From: an uncultured Acidobacteriota bacterium
GTDB lineage: Bacteria > Actinomycetota > Acidimicrobiia > Spongiisociales > ZC4RG35
Length of the DNA: 64,000 nucleotides
Reading direction: 5' to 3'
Assembly: GCA_963789135.1 (NCBI GenBank)
Contig: CAWBJJ010000002.1
Coordinates: 87,736 to 151,735 of the forward strand
Position 1 is the stretch's first letter; the number at the start of each line of letters is the position of its first letter. The position numbers and the translations under genes are program-made. This document shows, piece by piece, positions 16,887 to 57,637 of the stretch. The notes beneath the pieces are model-generated. The model saw nothing but the letters and a program-made list of their open reading frames with translations, had not been told where the DNA came from and ran no database searches.

Positions 16887-18023
16887 TCAGTCCGAGCTGT
16901 TCCTGATCCAGACCGAGAGCTTCGTTGGCTGCACCGTCGCGACGACCACGCCGATCCAGCCCTGGACGATGCGATCGGTGTCCATCTCGTCCTGAACGGA
17001 TCTGGCGAACTCCGCGCCAACTCGTACCGCGTCGTAATGGGATCGATTGAATCGCCGGTCGACGACTCGTTGCACATTGCGGCGGACCGGGTTGAACAAC
17101 GCGGCAACAGCCAAAGTGGATGCCGCGACTCGTATTTCGCTGCCCGGCGGGAGCAGTGAAGTCAGCACGGTCACGACCAGGCCAAACACAGCTGCCAGGA
17201 GCGCGACCACTACCGAGTACGACACAGTTCGGGAGACGATGCGATCAATCTCGAAAAGCCGATAGCGGAGGATCGCGATCCCGAACCAGAGCGGAAAGGT
17301 GATCATCATCACGAAAACCGGGCCCCAGGCCGCATCCCCGGGGTCACCGGCACCGAGCGCGATCGATCCGAAGATGTAGGCGAAGGTCATGATGATGGCG
17401 CTCACCAGCAGGACGAAACCGAACACCACCCACGTGATCTGGGCCCGTTCCGCTCCGACTGCGCGGCGTCGCTTCACCACCAACGAGACCACACCGCCCA
17501 GCAGGATGGCTACCACGGTCATGAGCAGGGGAAACGAAAGCCAGCCGGGAAGGAACCCAATCGAGTTCTCGATGCCCGACTCCGAAACCGGGCCGCCGAG
17601 GGTCTCAGTGAGTGCGGTTGCGACCACGAGCAGCGGTAGCACACGGATTGCCAGTCGTCCGGAGCGGGCGGCCAGGCTTGGGCCTTTTGGCGGGTGCCCG
17701 GAGGGAAACGTCAGCGTCAGGATCCCGAACACGGCGAAGACCGCGGTCCAGATCCAGCTGCCGACCCAGTCGGCGAAGTTGTCGGGTGTCCCCGGGAAAT
17801 AGGGGGAGGCATCGGCGAACACCAGGAGCAGCCCGATCACGGACAGGAGCCATCCGGTCAGATGGCCATCGCGGCGGAAGACGATCATGCCCCCGGTAAC
17901 TGCATAGATCCCAAAGCCGAGGCCGGCCAGAAAGACGTCGGCGGCGGGTATTGCCCCCGCTAGCTGGACCCAAAGCAGCAGGGCGCCGGTGATGCAGATC
18001 AGGCCGAAAGCGAATCGCCGCAC
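16887..18023 (-). CDS. polytopic membrane sensor-module protein, sixth (dispersed) paralog of the 47.5-53.1 kb array (P0)
   Basis: 378 aa and multi-TM. It shares RRDGHLTGW, RRRAVGAERAQITW, LRYRLFEIDRIVSRTVSY, FNPVRRNVQRVVDRRFNRSHYDA and the tail ...VQPTKLSVWIR with P1-P5. No output domain. Confidence 0.8.
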   Translation of the reverse strand: MRRFAFGLICITGALLLWVQLAGAIPAADVFLAGLGFGIYAVTGGMIVFRRDGHLTGWLLSVIGLLLVFADASPYFPGTPDNFADWVGSWIWTAVFAVFGILTLTFPSGHPPKGPSLAARSGRLAIRVLPLLVVATALTETLGGPVSESGIENSIGFLPGWLSFPLLMTVVAILLGGVVSLVVKRRRAVGAERAQITWVVFGFVLLVSAIIMTFAYIFGSIALGAGDPGDAAWGPVFVMMITFPLWFGIAILRYRLFEIDRIVSRTVSYSVVVALLAAVFGLVVTVLTSLLPPGSEIRVAASTLAVAALFNPVRRNVQRVVDRRFNRSHYDAVRVGAEFARSVQDEMDTDRIVQGWIGVVVATVQPTKLSVWIRNSSD

Positions 18024-44568: not shown

Positions 44569-47304
44569 CTACCAGCGGCTGAGCAGCCAAACCTCGGGTT
44601 GCCAGTCACCGGTGCCGATCCCGGAGAAGAGGGTTACCGCCTTGGTCAGTTCGAGATTGGCTTCATCGTCACGCCCCGCCCGGTGGTGGATGTCCGCGAG
44701 ATGGTTGTGCAGGGCGGCCTCCCGATGGCGATTGCCGGTCCGCTCTGCGATGACAACGGCCTCGGTCACCATCCTCGCCGCCGAGTCGAGGTCGCCAGAC
44801 TCGGCCAGGAGGTGGGCCCGATTGTTGAGCCCCGCAAGTCGGAGCAGGTCGTCGTCGCCGGCTAGTTCCAGAGCCCTGTCGAGGTGTTGGGCCGCGCTTG
44901 CCGGATCCGCGGCAGACGACTCCGATGATGTTGTGGACCCGGGAGAGTTGAGCCGGCTCGGCATCGGCCCCCAACAGCTCCATCGACTTCGATGCCAATT
45001 CGTCGGCGCCCGCCGACGTCCCCGAGCCGGTGCCTGAGCAGGGCCCAGTCGGCATACAGGTCATAAGCGTGATTGGCGTCGGCCGACCTCGAGAAATGTT
45101 CCTCGGCCAACTCGAACTTGCCCAGCAGTCTTTGCACCTCGCCGAGCCGATGCTCCGCGACCGCGAGCAGCGGACCGTCTGCCCTCGCCGCCGCAATGCT
45201 GAGCTCGGTCAGCGCCTCGTCGTAGTCACCGACCACCATCGCCACTTCACCGAGGGCGAGATGGATCGATGCCGGGTCGTCGTGTCCCAATCCGAGAGCC
45301 TTGCGGTACATCTCTCGGGCCTCGGCGTGGGCGTAGACCTGGCGGGCCAGGTCACCGGCACGCCGATACCAGTCGGCCGCGGACTCGGAGCCGGCTCCCT
45401 CGTGCTGGGCCGCGATCGCGGCGACCAGCCGCGGATCGGAACCGGCCCCCGGCCGTTGTGCGAGCGCCGAGGCAGCGCGTCGATGGAGCAAGCGGCGCCT
45501 GGTCAGCGAAGTCGACTCGTACGCCAGACGCTCCAGTGCCTCCAGGGTGAAGCGAAGGCCATCGCCTTCGGCAACTTCATGGAGAAGGCCCGCAGCCACC
45601 AATTCCTCGACAGCGTCGACGACCTCCTCCTCGGTGCGGCCACTGGTCTCTCTGAGAAGCCCGGAGTCGCAGGAGCCATCGAGCACCGCGGCCGCCGTGA
45701 CCACCTGGCGGCCGAGATCACTCAGGTCCCGCAGCCTCGCCTCCATGTAGCGGACCATGCCCTTGGCTTCGATGCCGACCCCTGCCAAGTCATCGGTCAC
45801 CAGCAGGGGGATCCCACCGGTGCGCTGATGGAGGTCGATCGCGGCTTCCCGGGACCCGGCGGCTGACATCAACTGATCGACCGTCAACGGCTCCAGCTCG
45901 ATTCGGTGGCCGACACTGCTCACGAGACCTTCGATGACAGCGGACACCGGATCTCCTGACCGAATCGCTGCCACCAGCAGAAGGCTCGTCTGGTCGACGC
46001 GCACGAGCCAGATATGAGATCAGTCCCGCCGAGGCCGGGTCCAGCCACTGCGCATCGTCGATCATCAGGACCATCGGCTTCGCCTTCGAAAGCTCTCGCA
46101 GCAGTGTGAAAGCGCCATCGAAGAGCCGCAGCTCACCGAAAGGGTCGGTCAACTCCTGCGTCGGCTGCTGGCGGTTGATCTCCGGGACCAGCCTCCCCAC
46201 CTCGACGATGCGCCCACGCCGAGAGCCGCTCTCGTTCCGCTTCGATCAGATCGCGGGCCGGCGCGGAGCAATTGGGTCGCGACACCGAAGGGAAGGCTTT
46301 GTTCCATGCGGATAGGCCCGTCCGATGAGTGTCGAGTAGCCCGGCGTCGGCCCGCGACAGCCTCGAGTTCCTCGAGCAAACGGGTCTTCCCCATCCACGG
46401 AGGGCCGGTGATCGAGACTGTCTCGCCACCATTGCCAAGCCGGTCCAACGCGGACCCCAGCAGTCCAAGCTCGTCGACGCGGTCGATGAGGTCGCTGCTC
46501 TCCGGAGCCGACGGCGGGCTGCGCCCGGACTCGCTTCCTCGTCCCCGGCGCCGGCGGCAGGTCCTCGTCGAGGATCGCCTCGTAGAGCTCGGTTGTCTCC
46601 TCGAGCGGCGGGACTCCGAGCTCCTGATCGAGCACCGCGGTGCAGCGGCGGTATGCCTCGACGGCTCCGGGCCGATCTCCCGCCCAGGCGTTGAGGAGCA
46701 TCAGCGAGCGATGGGCAGGCTCGTGTAGCTGGTCGAGGTCGATCCACCGAGCCACTGCGTCGATGGCTGCCTGGTAGTCACCTTCGGCTGCCAGCGCCGT
46801 CGCCAGACCGGTCGAAGGCCTCGCCGACCCTGATCCGGGTCGACTCGGCGACACTCCTCGCCCAGTCGTCGAACTCTGCCGAGGCCTGGACGGAGAAGCC
46901 TGCAAGGAAGTCGCCCCGGAAGAGCTCGACGGCTCGGGACAGATGGGGAATGCAGCGGGTGCAAACGTCATGAGGGTCGTGGCCGTGTCGGTCGTCGCCT
47001 TCAACTCGCGGGTCGAAGAGATCGATGTCGGAGGTGACGTCACCGACCAGCGTCACCATGGTTGCGGTCGGCCTCGATCAGGTCACTGCCAGCGGCACCG
47101 CGCAGCGTCGACAGGGTGCGACGCAAGCGTCGCCCGGGCCCGGTCCTGTGGTGAGTCCGCCCACAAGAGACCGGCCAGGGTGTCCCTGGTCGCCGACCGT
47201 TCCACGACCAGGTAGGCGAGTAGCGGCGATCGCCTTGCGGGTGTCCACCTCGACGGGTGCCGTTGGCGAGACACGCGGGGGCCGAGCAGTTCCACGTTGA
47301 GCAT
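44569..47304 (-). pseudogene. SARP/AfsR-like regulator (winged-helix + BTAD + AAA/NB-ARC-like ATPase + TPR), heavily frameshifted
   Basis: Family-typical segments sit in at least nine different frame blocks. They include MLNVELLGP, PVEVDTRKAIAA, LLAYLVVERSATRDTLAGLLWADSPQDRARATL, RRTLSTLRGAAGSDLIEADRN and VTLVGDVTSDIDLF...LFRGDFLAGF. Further blocks are ...YQAAIDAVARWIDLDQLHEPAHRSLMLLNAWAGDRPGAVEAYRRCTAVLDQELGVPPLEETTELYEAI, VSITGPPWMGKTRLLEEL (Walker A), PMVLMIDDAQWLD (Walker B), a long helical/TPR region, and a C-terminal TPR block. Confidence 0.75.
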
Positions 47305-51881: not shown

Positions 51882-53110
51882 CCCGGCGACGGGCCACGTT
51901 CCTGAGTTGGTCGATGTGGGTGCTGGGGGTCGCCGCGATGGTCGCGGGCGCGGTGATCACGAGTCGCAACCCGGCAATTCTGACCACGGAACCCGAGGAG
52001 AGTCTGCTCGAGAACTTGATCTGGCTTTCGTCGTTCGTCGGTTTTGGCTTGGTCGGCGCCTTGGTCGTCTCCAAGCGCCCCTCCAACAGAATCGGCTGGA
52101 TTCTCTCCGGGATCACCCTCTCGGTCGGAGTCATGGTGTTGGCCCCGGCGTACGCCCGGTATGCGTTGGTGACGGCACCAGGGACAATTCCATTGGGACA
52201 CTTGGCGGCCTGGGTTTCGACCTGGGCGGTGGTAGTGCCGGCGACTCTCGCTATCGCCCTCGTCCTTCTCTACCCGGCCGGGTCGATCACGACCAGGACA
52301 GGGAGAGTCGTCCTGTTCCTGCTTCTATCTCTGGCGGCCCTGGACGTAGTCGCATTCGCATTACGGCCGGGCCCGGTCGAGGGAGACACCCCGCCCATGA
52401 ATCCCCTCGGCATCTCTGGTGCAGACGGGGTCCTGAACTCGGTCATTTCCACGAGCGGGTCGCTGATGGCCCTACTCCTCGTTATCGGGGTCGTCGATCT
52501 GTTTGTTCGCTTCCGTAAGTCCTCCGGCGTGGAACGCCTGCAGTTTCGATGGTTCCTCCTGTCCTTCGCCGCGTTCCCGGTCCTCTTCCTGCTTTCGACC
52601 TTCCTCGAGGAGGAAGTCATCGGGGTTGGAGGATTCGACCCGACATTGATCGTGTTTCCACTTTGGGGGCTCGGAACCGCCACTGCCCTGGCAGTCGCCA
52701 TCACCCGTCATGGCCTTTACGAGATCAATCGCATCGTTTCCCGCACCGTCACCTACACCCTGGTGGTGGGCGCTCTGGCTGCAGTGTTCTTCGTCGCGGT
52801 CACCGCCCTGACCGCCCTGCTCGACGCGGAGAGCGATGTGGTCGTCGCTGGCTCGACGTTGGCTGTAGCAGCCCTTTTCACCCCGGTGCGCCGGAGAGTT
52901 CAGGGCTGGGTCGATCGCCGCTTCAACCGCTCCCGGTACAACGCTCAGACCGTGATGGACGGGTTCGCAGACACGCTCCGGAACGAAGTCGACCCGGCGG
53001 AGGTAGCCGAAGGCTGGGTATCGGTGGTGTCATCGACGATGAAGCCCAAGGTCGTCGGAGTTTGGATAAGCCAGGAATCCCGTAACGATTTCGGGACGGT
53101 CGGAGGATAG
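51878..53110 (+). CDS. array paralog P5
   Basis: The ATG overlaps the P4 stop (ATGA). Carries KRPSNRIGW, VRFRKSSGVERLQFRW, TRHGLYEINRIVSRTVTY, FTPVRRRVQGWVDRRFNRSRYNAQTVMDGFADTL and the tail STMKPKVVGVWISQ.... It is the most divergent array member. Confidence 0.8.
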   Translation: MTRRRATFLSWSMWVLGVAAMVAGAVITSRNPAILTTEPEESLLENLIWLSSFVGFGLVGALVVSKRPSNRIGWILSGITLSVGVMVLAPAYARYALVTAPGTIPLGHLAAWVSTWAVVVPATLAIALVLLYPAGSITTRTGRVVLFLLLSLAALDVVAFALRPGPVEGDTPPMNPLGISGADGVLNSVISTSGSLMALLLVIGVVDLFVRFRKSSGVERLQFRWFLLSFAAFPVLFLLSTFLEEEVIGVGGFDPTLIVFPLWGLGTATALAVAITRHGLYEINRIVSRTVTYTLVVGALAAVFFVAVTALTALLDAESDVVVAGSTLAVAALFTPVRRRVQGWVDRRFNRSRYNAQTVMDGFADTLRNEVDPAEVAEGWVSVVSSTMKPKVVGVWISQESRNDFGTVGG

Positions 53111-53121
53111 AAAGCACACAT

Positions 53122-54714
53122 ATGGTTCAACTGATGAGACGTCGCAAGACGGAAGAGGAAGAGGCGACGGCCAGCCCGGTCCCTGCCGAGCCCAACAGCC
53201 GGCTCATCGACGCGGTACCGATCCCTCCAGGCGACCCGCTCGAGACCGTCCTGCTCTCGCATGGAGGGCCTCTCGAGCTGGCTTCGTTGGAGCTGGAGTC
53301 GGAGACTCTCGAGTCCATCAAGGAGCAAGGTGTTGAGTTGGTCGTGCCCCTCATCGGCCAGGGTGAGCTGCTCGGCGCCCTCTACCTCGGTGCCAGGCTC
53401 TCCGACCAGCCATATTCGACCGACGACCGAAGGCTCCTCGGCAGCCTGGCGTCCCAGGTGGCACCGGCGATGAAGGTTGCCCAACTGGTCCGAGAGCAAC
53501 AGGCCGAGGCCAAGGAACGCCAGCGGATCCAACAGGAGATGCAGGTCGCCGCGCTGATCCAGCAGACCCTTCTTCCCCGCGATCTGCCCTCCATCTCGGG
53601 GTGGGGCATCGATGCCTTCTACCGCCCTGCTCGGGCGGTTGGTGGCGACTTCTACGACTTCATCCATCTCGACGACGGCCGGCTCGGCGTCGTGATCGGG
53701 GACGTGACCGACAAGGGTGTGCCCGCGGCACTCGTAATGGCGACCTGCCGTTCGATGTTGCGCTCGGCCGCCCACAACCACCGCGATCCGGGCTTGGTGC
53801 TCGCCGAGGTCAACGATGCCCTGGTATCCGAGATACCGCCCGCGATGTTCGTCACCTGTCTTTACGCGATCGTTGACACCCACAGCGGGGACGTGATCTT
53901 CGCCAACGCGGGGCACAACCTGCCGTATGTCCGCGATGACTCAGGTGTCGTCGAGCTGCGCGCCACGGGGATGCCCTTGGGCCTGATGCCCGGGATGACA
54001 TATGACGAGCACAAGCACCGGCTCGCAGCGGGCGATGTGATGGTTCTGACCAGCGACGGGATCACCGAGGCCCACGACCCGGACGGCGAGATGTACGGCT
54101 TCCCCAGGCTCATGGGAAGAGTTGCCGTCAAGCCCCAGGACGGTGACGTTGTCTCGGCTCTCGTCGGAGACCTCGAGAAGTTCACCGGACCTGACGCCGA
54201 GCAGGAAGACGACATAACCCTGGTCGTCGTGAAGCGCACCGCCTACGCCCAGGACAGTGCAGGAGCGTTCGACGACCTGTCCACCACCACTCTGCTCGAC
54301 AGTTTCAGCGTTGCCAGCGAAGAAGGCAACGAGCGTGCCGCGATCGAACAGGTGGCGGCTGCCGTCGCTGATCTGGCCCTGGAACCGGCCCAACTCGAGC
54401 GCCTGAAGACGGCGGTCGGAGAGACAGTGATGAATGCCATCGAGCACGGGAACGAGAACCGGCCCGAGTTGATGGTGGACGTGGCAGTCATGGCCACGGA
54501 TCACGCGATCAAGGTGAGGGTCACCGATCACGGCGGCGGGAAGCCGATCCCCGACGTGGTCACGCCGGACATCGATGCCAAGCTGGCCGGCGAGCAGACA
54601 CCACGTGGGTGGGGACTCTTCCTGATCGGCCAGATGGTCGACGAAGTCCGCACCGAGAGCGTCGATGGGACCCACACAGTGGAGCTCGTCATGAACAGAA
54701 AGGGCCAGGGCTGA
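53122..54714 (+). CDS. soluble SpoIIE/PP2C-type phosphatase fused to an RsbW-like HATPase_c (anti-sigma kinase) domain, with a short GAF-like N-terminal segment
   Basis: 530 aa with no TM helix. The GAF-C-terminal-like segment is VELVVPLIGQGELLGALYLGARLSDQPYSTDDRRLLGSLASQVAPAMKVAQL. The PP2C/SpoIIE motifs are AVGGDFYDF, GDVTDKGVPAAL and LTSDGITEA. The HATPase segment is GETVMNAIEHGN...VRVTDHGGG...GWGLFLI. A GGAGGA RBS overlaps the P5 3' end. Confidence 0.8.
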   Translation: MVQLMRRRKTEEEEATASPVPAEPNSRLIDAVPIPPGDPLETVLLSHGGPLELASLELESETLESIKEQGVELVVPLIGQGELLGALYLGARLSDQPYSTDDRRLLGSLASQVAPAMKVAQLVREQQAEAKERQRIQQEMQVAALIQQTLLPRDLPSISGWGIDAFYRPARAVGGDFYDFIHLDDGRLGVVIGDVTDKGVPAALVMATCRSMLRSAAHNHRDPGLVLAEVNDALVSEIPPAMFVTCLYAIVDTHSGDVIFANAGHNLPYVRDDSGVVELRATGMPLGLMPGMTYDEHKHRLAAGDVMVLTSDGITEAHDPDGEMYGFPRLMGRVAVKPQDGDVVSALVGDLEKFTGPDAEQEDDITLVVVKRTAYAQDSAGAFDDLSTTTLLDSFSVASEEGNERAAIEQVAAAVADLALEPAQLERLKTAVGETVMNAIEHGNENRPELMVDVAVMATDHAIKVRVTDHGGGKPIPDVVTPDIDAKLAGEQTPRGWGLFLIGQMVDEVRTESVDGTHTVELVMNRKGQG

Positions 54715-55055
54715 TGCCAGAGGATGCCTTCGAGGTCGAAGTGGTGGAGAGAGACGACGGACATGTCATCGAACTCCGGGGCACGGTGAACCGGGCGGCC
54801 AAAGAAGCCATGGAGGCGGCCTATGAGGGCACGGGCTCGGGCCGGGTCCTGCTCGACTTCACCCGCGTCGACTACATCAACTCAACCGGTATCGCGGTGA
54901 TCGTTGGCCTGTTGGCAATGGCCAGGGCCGAGGATCGCCAGGTGGGCGCCTTCGGGCTGACCGATCACTATCGCGAGGTGTTCCAAATCACCCGCCTTGC
55001 CGACTTCATGACCATTTACGACGACGAGTCCGCCGCGGTGACGGCGGGGATTTGA
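54714..55055 (+). CDS. STAS-domain protein (anti-sigma-factor antagonist family) 1
   Basis: 113 aa. LLDFTRVDYINSTGIAVIVGLL carries the conserved Ser/Thr position. The ATG overlaps the upstream TGA (TGATG). Confidence 0.75.
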   Translation: MPEDAFEVEVVERDDGHVIELRGTVNRAAKEAMEAAYEGTGSGRVLLDFTRVDYINSTGIAVIVGLLAMARAEDRQVGAFGLTDHYREVFQITRLADFMTIYDDESAAVTAGI

Positions 55056-55067
55056 GGAGAGGGAATC

Positions 55068-55418
55068 GTGCCTACTGCCAACCTGACGATGACAGTCCGT
55101 GAACTGAGCGAATCGGTCCGTGTGATCGACATCGAAGGCGAGATCACATCTTTTTCGGAGCCGGAGATCTCGGCTGCCCACGAGAAGGCCGCCGCCGGCG
55201 GGGTCGATGCCGTGATCCTCAACTTCGAGGGGCTGCAGTACATGAACAGTGGCGGGATCGGGATCCTGGTCACCACCCTGATCCGGGCCCAGCGCTCGGG
55301 CCACCGCTTACTGGCGTTCGGCCTCACCGACCACTACCGCCAGATCTTTGCCCTGACCAGGCTCGACGAGGCCATCGAGATCTTCGACGACGAAGCGTCG
55401 GCAGTCGCCGCCACCTGA
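55068..55418 (+). CDS. STAS-domain protein (anti-sigma-factor antagonist family) 2
   Basis: 116 aa. ILNFEGLQYMNSGGIGILVTTL carries the conserved Ser. GTG start preceded by GAGGAGAGGG. Confidence 0.75.
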   Translation: MPTANLTMTVRELSESVRVIDIEGEITSFSEPEISAAHEKAAAGGVDAVILNFEGLQYMNSGGIGILVTTLIRAQRSGHRLLAFGLTDHYRQIFALTRLDEAIEIFDDEASAVAAT

Positions 55419-56819: not shown

Positions 56820-56926
56820 TGGAGTCGATTGTGGCGCGGTCGCGTTACGAAATGGTGATCGGGATCCACAGGAGCCGGCCGATTCCCCGTAACGGTGGCG
56901 GAACGCTTCGATGGTCTGCTGTGGCC

Positions 56927-57637
56927 ATGGAGAAAGGACCCGAATTGACCGAACCGACCAACGCAGAGAACTGGGCAAAGCCGGTCGACGCCTTTCACGT
57001 CGGCGAGGTGGCCGAGGGGGCGCACAAGGGGAATGTCGAGGGCCGGCGCCCCACAGGTCCGCTCCAGGGCTTCGGCCAGCTCTGGCAGAAATGGTACGAG
57101 GTGGGCGTTCCCGGGCCCACTCCCGAGGAATTGATCGCAACCTGGAAGGCCAACTTCGGGGAGTTCTGGTACCCGACCAACAAGTTCTACGCACCTGCAG
57201 GCGGCATCAGCCCCGGTGAGATCGCGGTCATCGGCGGCGGCAAAGGCCCGACCAAGGTCACTTCTGGCGTCCGGGTCATCTACGCCGACGATCGGTCTTG
57301 GTCCTATATGACCCCGGAAGGCCACCCCTGGGCGGCGATCATCACCTTCAGCGCATATGAGGACGACCAAGACGTGACCCGGGCGCGGATCCACCTCCTG
57401 GTCCGGGCCAACGACCCTCTGTATGAAGCGAGCTTCAAGGCTTACACCTCCCGCCTCGAGGACAAGATGTGGAAGTACACGCTGGGCCAGGTGGCGGAGC
57501 ATTACGACGTAGCGGAGCCCGAGGTGACCATGGAAACCACCCTGGTCGACAAGCGGCGGCAATGGGATCAGATGGGCAACATCTGGAAGAACTCGGCGAT
57601 CAGGACCCTGCTACGCCAGGACCGAAAAATCGGCTGA
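56927..57637 (+). CDS. hypothetical soluble protein
   Basis: 236 aa from the ATG at 56927 (MEKGPELTEP...). The composition looks well-behaved. No family recognised. Confidence 0.55.
   Translation: MEKGPELTEPTNAENWAKPVDAFHVGEVAEGAHKGNVEGRRPTGPLQGFGQLWQKWYEVGVPGPTPEELIATWKANFGEFWYPTNKFYAPAGGISPGEIAVIGGGKGPTKVTSGVRVIYADDRSWSYMTPEGHPWAAIITFSAYEDDQDVTRARIHLLVRANDPLYEASFKAYTSRLEDKMWKYTLGQVAEHYDVAEPEVTMETTLVDKRRQWDQMGNIWKNSAIRTLLRQDRKIG

Follow-up and report, generated by a model that had tools for sequence, protein, structure and literature searches.

The stretch of DNA analysed here, which we call the window, comprises 64,000 nucleotides (nt) of contig CAWBJJ010000002.1 (NCBI GenBank assembly GCA_963789135.1, forward-strand positions 87,736 to 151,735) from an uncultured bacterium deposited as Acidobacteriota and placed by GTDB in the Acidimicrobiia of the Actinomycetota. 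Between 47.5 and 55.4 kb, its plus strand carries a tightly packed row of genes consisting of five paralogous membrane protein genes, named P1 to P5, a gene for a phosphatase-kinase fusion, called here the phosphatase, and two STAS genes (Table 1). The initial annotation, made from the sequence alone, proposed that the C-terminal tail of the P proteins and the N-terminus of the phosphatase are the two parts of a single GAF-type sensory domain, divided between separate genes and possibly reassembled non-covalently, and it is this proposal that we followed up by comparison with fused homologs, by structure prediction and by a survey of related loci.

The intact P proteins end 44-57 amino acids (aa) past the motif RRFNRSRY(D/N), the distance from RRFNRSRYD to the end being 44-47 aa in P1, P3 and P4, and their tails follow the consensus ...GFAxSLRxxVDxxxVxxGWxxVVSETMQPxxVxVWVR. 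P2 has this common tail as well, readable only once its three frameshifts are corrected, and P5 differs by having RYN in place of RYD and by 13 additional residues (SQESRNDFGTVGG). A scan of one genome per species yielded 80 loci, and the window together with 81 related loci made up the 82 sources compared here; over these, the distance from the motif to the stop is 43-69 aa in 232 of the 241 motif occurrences, with a mode of 46, and the nine occurrences outside this range include out-of-frame read-throughs. Among the window paralogs, identity is 26% in the N-terminal membrane part, and in the C-terminal module it is 68% for the last membrane helices, 80% for the juxtamembrane helix and 50% for the tail, whose length and whose W, P and hydrophobic pattern are kept across classes. 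Comparison with Pfam and NCBIfam gave no family for the P proteins or for the P tail alone; the homologs of P5 are stand-alone proteins of about 400 aa, also without a Pfam family. The tail family is nevertheless very large, with 9172 clusters at 50% identity and E <= 0.001 for a 70-aa tail query, and among the best 150 of these 9172 representatives the tail is C-terminal or closes a P unit in P-P fusions, the exceptions to the C-terminal position being such fusions and one PDZ-P protein. Three of these proteins (P0241, P0270 and P0309) are tandem P-P fusions of 929-961 aa with two tail matches, in which no Pfam domain is found other than a PDZ domain added at the N-terminus of P0309. Some distant P homologs have a longer C-terminal extension that ends in a conserved ...VTVPERxRE(T/K)xG. 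In other long-read metagenome assemblies (L001, L002, L037, L057 and L076), a P gene is frameshifted at the same spot, right after RYD, which could reflect either shared pseudogenes or a systematic base-calling error.

At its N-terminus, the phosphatase is matched by the Pfam GAF models over the C-terminal parts of their profiles only (PF01590 at positions 41-132/133, PF13492 at 48-127/129 and PF13185 at 91-135/136), the first profile position matched by the phosphatase alone being about 36-48, and a whole-profile GAF match within one polypeptide (PF01590, PF13185, PF13492) is absent for the phosphatase and for the P tail. These matches agree with the earlier assignment of this region to the C-terminal part of a GAF domain, and the N-terminal sequence also reads as it had been quoted. 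The figure of about 125 aa before the PP2C domain has to be corrected, given that the Pfam SpoIIE match starts at residue 184 and about 183 aa therefore precede it; the GAF-like part extends to about residue 120 and is separated from PP2C by a long linker helix (about 118-183). An in-frame stop lies 12 codons 5' of the phosphatase ATG, and therefore no longer N-terminus is hidden upstream. The catalytic domain matches PF07228 at 176.6 bits against a cut-off of 25 (profile positions 1-191/192), and the kinase domain matches PF13581 at 68.4 bits against a cut-off of 27.4, with PDB matches to anti-sigma F factor; the protein as a whole retrieves PP2C domains, Rv1364c and anti-sigma F factor from the PDB by sequence. 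Identity to its 120 best relatives in the database is 75-94%, and apart from a single entry of 384 aa their lengths are 500-560 aa. The two downstream STAS proteins carry the motifs NSTG and NSGG, as read from their translations, and with PP2C, an RsbW-like kinase and STAS antagonists encoded together, the locus has the gene content of a partner-switching module.

Table 1. Features of the P-phosphatase locus, with positions in the window (ORF, open reading frame; AF2, AlphaFold2).
Feature	Position	Strand	Description	Basis
P1	47559..48620	+	Polytopic membrane protein, PrsK-type N-terminal sensor domain; last part predicted as GAF alpha1-beta1	ORF, translation, local PrsK model
P2	48684..49741	+	Paralog with three frameshifts (pseudogene or long-read assembly errors)	Three-frame translation
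P3	49738..50835	+	Paralog; start overlaps P2 stop	ORF, translation
P4	50832..51881	+	Paralog; start overlaps P3 stop	ORF, translation
P5	51878..53110	+	Last paralog, directly 5' of phosphatase; start overlaps P4 stop	ORF, AF2, hhalign to PrsK
P5 tail past RRFNRSRYN	52943..53071	+	Predicted GAF alpha1 (PAEVAEGWVSVVSSTM) and beta1 (VVGVWI)	Composite AF2; aligns to PrsK '...spggalwl'
Phosphatase-kinase fusion, 530 aa	53122..54714	+	Partial GAF, PP2C (SpoIIE family), RsbW-like HATPase_c_2	Pfam, PDB sequence matches
Partial GAF, phosphatase residues 25-123	53194..53490	+	Predicted beta2 (SRLIDAV) to alpha5	Pfam GAF, hhalign, AF2 pLDDT ~90
PP2C catalytic domain, residues 184-372	53671..54237	+	PF07228	Pfam E = 7e-52
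RsbW/SpoIIAB-like kinase domain, residues 401-522	54322..54687	+	PF13581	Pfam, PDB matches, NCBIfam
STAS 1	54714..55055	+	STAS anti-sigma-factor antagonist	Pfam, NCBIfam
STAS 2	55068..55418	+	STAS anti-sigma-factor antagonist	Pfam, NCBIfam
Conserved DNA element	53081..53114	+	CGTAACGnTTnCnGGACG-N9-TAGAAAG (also written cCGTAACGnTTnCnGGACG-N9-TAGAAAgg); overlaps last codons and stop of P5	
Orphan P paralog	16887..18023	-	Same C-terminal module; no partial-GAF gene adjoining; 35 kb from the cluster	

The fused homologs were found among the PrsK histidine kinases of the XrtA/PEP-CTERM system; the specificity domain of PrsK, a transmembrane kinase, has been called "entirely novel" (Haft et al. 2006, PMC1569441). 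The first lead was a weak match of the phosphatase N-terminus to the PrsK family of NCBIfam, TIGR02916, at profile positions 409-471. With the C-terminal module of P1 joined to the phosphatase, the TIGR02916 score rises to 31.2 bits and the P part lies at profile positions 219-348, and concatenates from a Solirubrobacteraceae locus (L035) and a Caldilineaceae locus (L048) give single TIGR02916 stretches at 285-471 and 280-467, respectively; a control with the tail reversed matches 408-471 only, without any rise in score. PrsK is matched by 24 of 101 full-length P homologs alone at E <= 0.1 and by 26 of 30 natural concatenates at E <= 0.001, while the cut-off of this 679-position profile, 300 bits, is not reached by the best concatenates, at 31.2 and 31.7 bits. 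PrsK genes were also fetched from metagenomes by the back-translated motif KYDYRxEW, which gave 120 loci with 67 near-complete open reading frames (ORFs), and two of the fetched comparators were confirmed as true PrsK by TIGR02916 scores of 841 and 772 bits against the same cut-off. In the fetched PrsK, a complete Pfam GAF domain (profile 5-10 to 130-135) starts 21-27 aa past KYDYR and is followed by HATPase_c; of three proteins tested, two also give weak matches to HisKA. The PrsK sequence, ...RARLRVFLSKHFFxYKYDYREEWLRFIRTLS...ERAIxALAQIVDSPGGALWLRR..., and its P counterpart, ...RRRVQxWVDRRFNRSRYDAQRVMDGFAESLR...GWVGVVSETMQPxxVxVWVR, are visibly the same module.

A local model of the PrsK mid-region, in which RRFNRSRYD of P aligns to HFFxYKYDYR of PrsK, gives 21.4 bits for P1 alone (positions 18-157, reaching the last residue of P1) and 27.0 bits for the phosphatase alone (positions 218-281), and P1 joined to the phosphatase forms one alignment of 53.6 bits over model positions 18-281. 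In profile-profile comparison by hhalign, the P family aligns with PrsK (N-terminus through GAF) over 368 columns, at PrsK columns 1-383, with a probability of 99.4% and E = 4e-20, and phosphatase residues 28-135 align with PrsK columns 371-484 at 96.5% and E = 9e-10. The P family and the phosphatase N-terminus are thus collinear on PrsK and almost non-overlapping, and together they tile its sensor-GAF region, with the cut at the beta1-beta2 turn, about 26 positions from the start of the GAF domain that Pfam finds in PrsK. No segment is missing between the halves, because phosphatase residues 26-32 (SRLIDAV) fill the place of beta2. Of all the queries, only the concatenates of tail and phosphatase reach Pfam GAF positions 2-13; a concatenate profile run against the sequences of the PDB gave weak full-span matches only (6uv8 at E = 0.29 and 6oap at E = 0.8). 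Judged by these alignments, the P proteins are homologous to the polytopic membrane sensor at the N-terminus of PrsK and end right after the predicted first helix and strand of GAF, and the phosphatase N-terminus is the remainder of a PrsK-type GAF domain (predicted beta2 to alpha5), encoded by a separate gene, with the first part multiplied. The concatenate aligns across the junction with fused homologs, both in TIGR02916 and in the local PrsK model, and the break point lies inside the PrsK GAF domain, as the initial annotation had anticipated. The single ancestral polypeptide that it had postulated is borne out in part: an ancestor with membrane sensor and GAF in one chain, as in PrsK, is well supported, but the exact membrane-sensor/GAF/PP2C ancestor is hypothetical because the fused relatives carry a histidine-kinase output and no PP2C fusion was found among the loci and protein matches compared.

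Structure prediction with AlphaFold2 (AF2) points in the same direction. A composite chain was made by joining the last 75 aa of P5 to phosphatase residues 1-150, its alignment holding the five tails of the window and 119 homologs of the phosphatase. The best of the models has the tail as a helix (38-53) and a strand (57-62, VVGVWI) at a predicted local distance difference test score (pLDDT) of 80-90, the phosphatase part near 90, and the natural linker disordered, below 50. All top Foldseek matches of this model in the PDB are GAF domains; for targets of 150-175 aa that comprise a single domain, the alignments span 175-200 columns and the target-normalised template modelling scores (TM-scores) are 0.59-0.65, values that refer to an artificially joined chain, and alignments of about 93 columns, the extent of the phosphatase part by itself, reach a TM-score of only 0.44. 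We take these results to mean that, in the composite, alpha1 and beta1 of GAF are supplied by the tail. When P5 was modelled alone (101 sequences), about ten membrane helices were predicted at pLDDT > 90, together with one long helix (320-370) formed by the last membrane helix and the juxtamembrane region; the tail helix stood at pLDDT 70-76, and the strand segment had no secondary structure, with pLDDT 73 and then 45. The P membrane domain had no significant structural match in the PDB. Both the PrsK collinearity and the composite model thus favour the earlier identification of the P tail as the first GAF helix and strand, and a complemented GAF fold is indeed predicted for the joined chain of P5 tail and phosphatase, the tail strand being unpaired in P5 alone. 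At the extreme N-terminus of the phosphatase (window 53122-53150), a basic motif is kept, MVQLMRRRK or, in the other clade, (F/L)RRR(F/L), with one arginine nearly invariant; it falls in the disordered linker of the model and might contact the membrane or P.

According to their record titles, the loci come from Acidimicrobiia, Thermoleophilia (Solirubrobacteraceae and Thermoleophilaceae), Nocardioidaceae, Kribbella isolates, Frankiaceae and one Caldilineaceae (Chloroflexota) genome, and a few metagenome-assembled genomes among them are labelled as other phyla. A same-strand P gene lies upstream of the phosphatase in 65 of the 72 loci that have at least 3 kb of upstream sequence, with 0-8 P copies per locus within 10 kb upstream (72 loci), and downstream there is a STAS gene in 77 of 78 loci and two STAS genes in 69 of 78. 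The P and phosphatase genes are separate in all 80 species loci, the Kribbella isolate genomes included; the last P gene and the phosphatase are between -1 and several hundred nt apart, each of the three frame offsets being represented (by 11, 8 and 5 loci), and no ORF in the 82 sources matches both the P model and the phosphatase model. Used as a protein query, the concatenate returned stand-alone phosphatases only, and no other partial-GAF output protein was found in the loci. Some lineages of the Actinomycetota have a gene for an SRPBCC (Polyketide_cyc2) protein of about 150 aa inserted after the last P gene and ahead of the phosphatase (L029, 9340-9852; L061, 9373-9828). The split arrangement is ancient and conserved, and it is real, being neither an assembly error nor a recoding site, because the genes are separate across loci with varying gaps and frames. 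Therefore, what had been read as a gene broken within GAF with its 5' half multiplied is confirmed as to the place of the break, at the beta1-beta2 turn, and as to the multiplication, with up to eight P copies, but the break is not a recent one.

On the strength of the alignments and models, we consider it probable that the P tail and the phosphatase N-terminus complete one GAF fold non-covalently, thereby coupling the membrane sensors to the phosphatase. In the mechanism that we propose, the two pieces would assemble non-covalently into one GAF fold, and this assembly would tether the phosphatase to the membrane and bring alpha1 and the juxtamembrane helix of P up against alpha5, the helix leading into the PP2C regulatory region. 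A conformational change in the membrane sensor would then set the activity of the phosphatase, which would dephosphorylate the two STAS proteins; these would in turn capture the RsbW-like kinase domain, and the partner switch would presumably free a sigma factor. Several sensors could share one phosphatase because the paralogs diverge in the sensor (26% identity) and keep the C-terminal module (50-80%), and if they compete for, or alternate on, the same phosphatase, several signals would be integrated. We give about even chances to the broader proposal that fold complementation serves as a signalling connector, in which up to eight or more PrsK-type sensors would each donate alpha1-beta1 to one PP2C/kinase, the occupying sensor would decide the activity, and the whole would constitute a widespread plug-in input for partner switching in Actinomycetota.

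Several observations weigh against reassembly and its proposed role. Addition of the tail lifts the Pfam GAF scores by 0-3 bits only; the composite model consists of pieces joined in one chain, with only the five window paralogs in the tail alignment, and its five models span a mean pLDDT from 72.6 down to 54.6. Four loci have no P gene in the available flanks, and three have P genes on the opposite strand only, and the orphan P copy of the window lies 35 kb away from the cluster, so that adjacency is not obligatory. No P-PP2C fusion was found in the 80 loci, in the top 120 matches of either protein search or among the best 150 tail-family representatives. Finally, no sigma factor gene was noticed in the examined parts of the window, where no dedicated search for the target of the kinase domain was made.

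Some of these points would also be expected if the pieces descended from one PrsK-type GAF domain and no longer formed a common fold, the P tail serving P itself (e.g., in dimerisation or membrane association) and the phosphatase having a reduced, self-sufficient GAF-like domain, with any coupling going through other surfaces. The small gain in Pfam GAF score on concatenation fits such a relic of gene fission, as do the occurrence of orphan P copies, the phosphatase loci without an adjoining P gene and the very large size of the tail family (9172 clusters at E <= 0.001). However, the tail strand that is unpaired in the model of P alone becomes a confident strand in the composite, the length of the tail and its W, P and hydrophobic pattern are kept across classes, and the synteny is strong (65 of 72 loci). 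In the GAF fold, beta1 is an internal strand of the sheet, and a GAF-like domain without it should therefore be unstable. Given this internal position, the constraint on the tail and predicted models that differ as expected with and without the partner, we rate the relic lower than reassembly and regard it as unlikely. It is very improbable that the resemblance to GAF pieces is due to chance, the tail and the phosphatase N-terminus each being a small complete domain independent of the other: the lack of any Pfam or NCBIfam match for the P tail alone would suit this, but both pieces are collinear with PrsK at 99.4% and 96.5% with adjacent end points, the reversed-tail control gains nothing, and the Pfam match of the phosphatase begins only from GAF profile position 36-41 on. 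The least credible alternative holds that one fused protein is made, either because the stop separating P5 from the phosphatase results from an assembly error or because programmed frameshifting or read-through bypasses it. This reading could appeal to the other frameshifted genes of the window (P2 and possibly the upstream BTAD/TPR regulator ORFs) and to the phosphatase reading frame opening 22 nt before the P5 stop, but it is contradicted by the separate genes in all 80 species loci, Kribbella isolates included, by the interposed SRPBCC gene in some lineages and by gaps anywhere between -1 and several hundred nt, with every frame offset represented, and programmed frameshifting or read-through was rejected on account of this variation in spacing and frame.

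The junction between P5 and the phosphatase also carries the conserved DNA element of Table 1. In 75 of the 82 sources, across classes, this element precedes the start codon of the phosphatase by 6-9 nt. Because it overlaps the final codons of P5, it accounts for 'RNDFGT', an odd, conserved extension of the C-terminus, the DNA encoding this extension being elsewhere read in other frames or intergenic. Where the SRPBCC gene is inserted, the element precedes both this gene and the phosphatase, and in the window a second copy with two mismatches (56888-56905) lies 39 nt upstream of the ATG at 56927, the start of an ORF for a 236-aa protein without a known family. The element is a candidate promoter or operator of the regulon; an RNA element at the junction was rejected, as there was no Rfam match and no consensus RNA structure. 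Further upstream, on the minus strand (44862-47043), a BTAD-domain ORF (46246-47043) and a TPR-repeat ORF (44862-46004), together with two overlapping ORFs that lie between the two, resemble a single SARP/AfsR-type regulator interrupted by frameshifts, and a similar fragmented BTAD/TPR regulator set lies upstream in locus L001.

In the literature searched, we found no natural split GAF domain, only truncated or engineered GAF constructs, and no description of the P family or of its relation to PrsK. The parts of this system are of known kinds, namely a partner-switching PP2C, a GAF domain and a PrsK sensor, and it is their connection that is new. If the proposal is true, it would represent a natural sensory domain assembled from two gene products and a new way of coupling membrane sensors to a cytoplasmic effector, by which several sensors could share one output. 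For a very large family of actinobacterial membrane proteins annotated as "hypothetical", the analysis offers an initial pointer to function; it links the P family to the equally uncharacterised sensor domain of PrsK, and it suggests a design principle of exchangeable inputs for synthetic signalling. The locus is present in cultured Kribbella strains, such as Kribbella sp. NBC_00889 (NZ_CP108783.1, positions 2,562,374-2,583,891), which makes the idea directly testable.

Among known systems, the Bacillus stressosome (RsbR paralogs, RsbS, RsbT and RsbU) and the RsbQ-RsbP pair feed signals, from several paralogous sensors in the former, into one PP2C phosphatase, and a STAS antagonist is dephosphorylated in a partner switch. 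There, the regulator acts on the N-terminal domain of the phosphatase and its linker helix, and the stressosome sensors are cytoplasmic and signal via the RsbT kinase, which binds the complete N-terminal domain of RsbU; in contrast to what we propose here, neither of these systems is known to have a domain split over two polypeptides or a membrane sensor. Rv1364c of Mycobacterium tuberculosis (PDB 3ke6), which matches phosphatase residues 156-474, likewise combines PP2C and an RsbW-like kinase in one partner-switching protein, but its PAS sensor is complete, its chain includes a STAS domain, and it has neither a membrane partner nor a split domain. SpoIIE of Bacillus belongs to the same Pfam PP2C family and acts at the membrane on a STAS protein, but its membrane domain is in the same polypeptide and it has no GAF domain. 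Complementation of an incomplete fold by a strand from another chain is known from donor-strand complementation in chaperone-usher pili and from split PH domains; these are, however, cases of structural assembly or eukaryotic scaffolding, not of bacterial sensor-effector coupling, and they have no array of alternative donors. PrsK itself has the homologous polytopic membrane sensor, the (K/R)YD(Y/A)(R/Q) motif in a basic juxtamembrane helix and GAF directly after it. In PrsK, sensor, GAF and a HisKA and HATPase output form a single chain that works with the response regulator PrsR, whereas here the chain is cut after the predicted beta1 of GAF, the first part is present in up to eight copies, and a PP2C phosphatase joined to an RsbW-like kinase (SpoIIE and HATPase_c_2 domains) serves as output, accompanied by STAS proteins.

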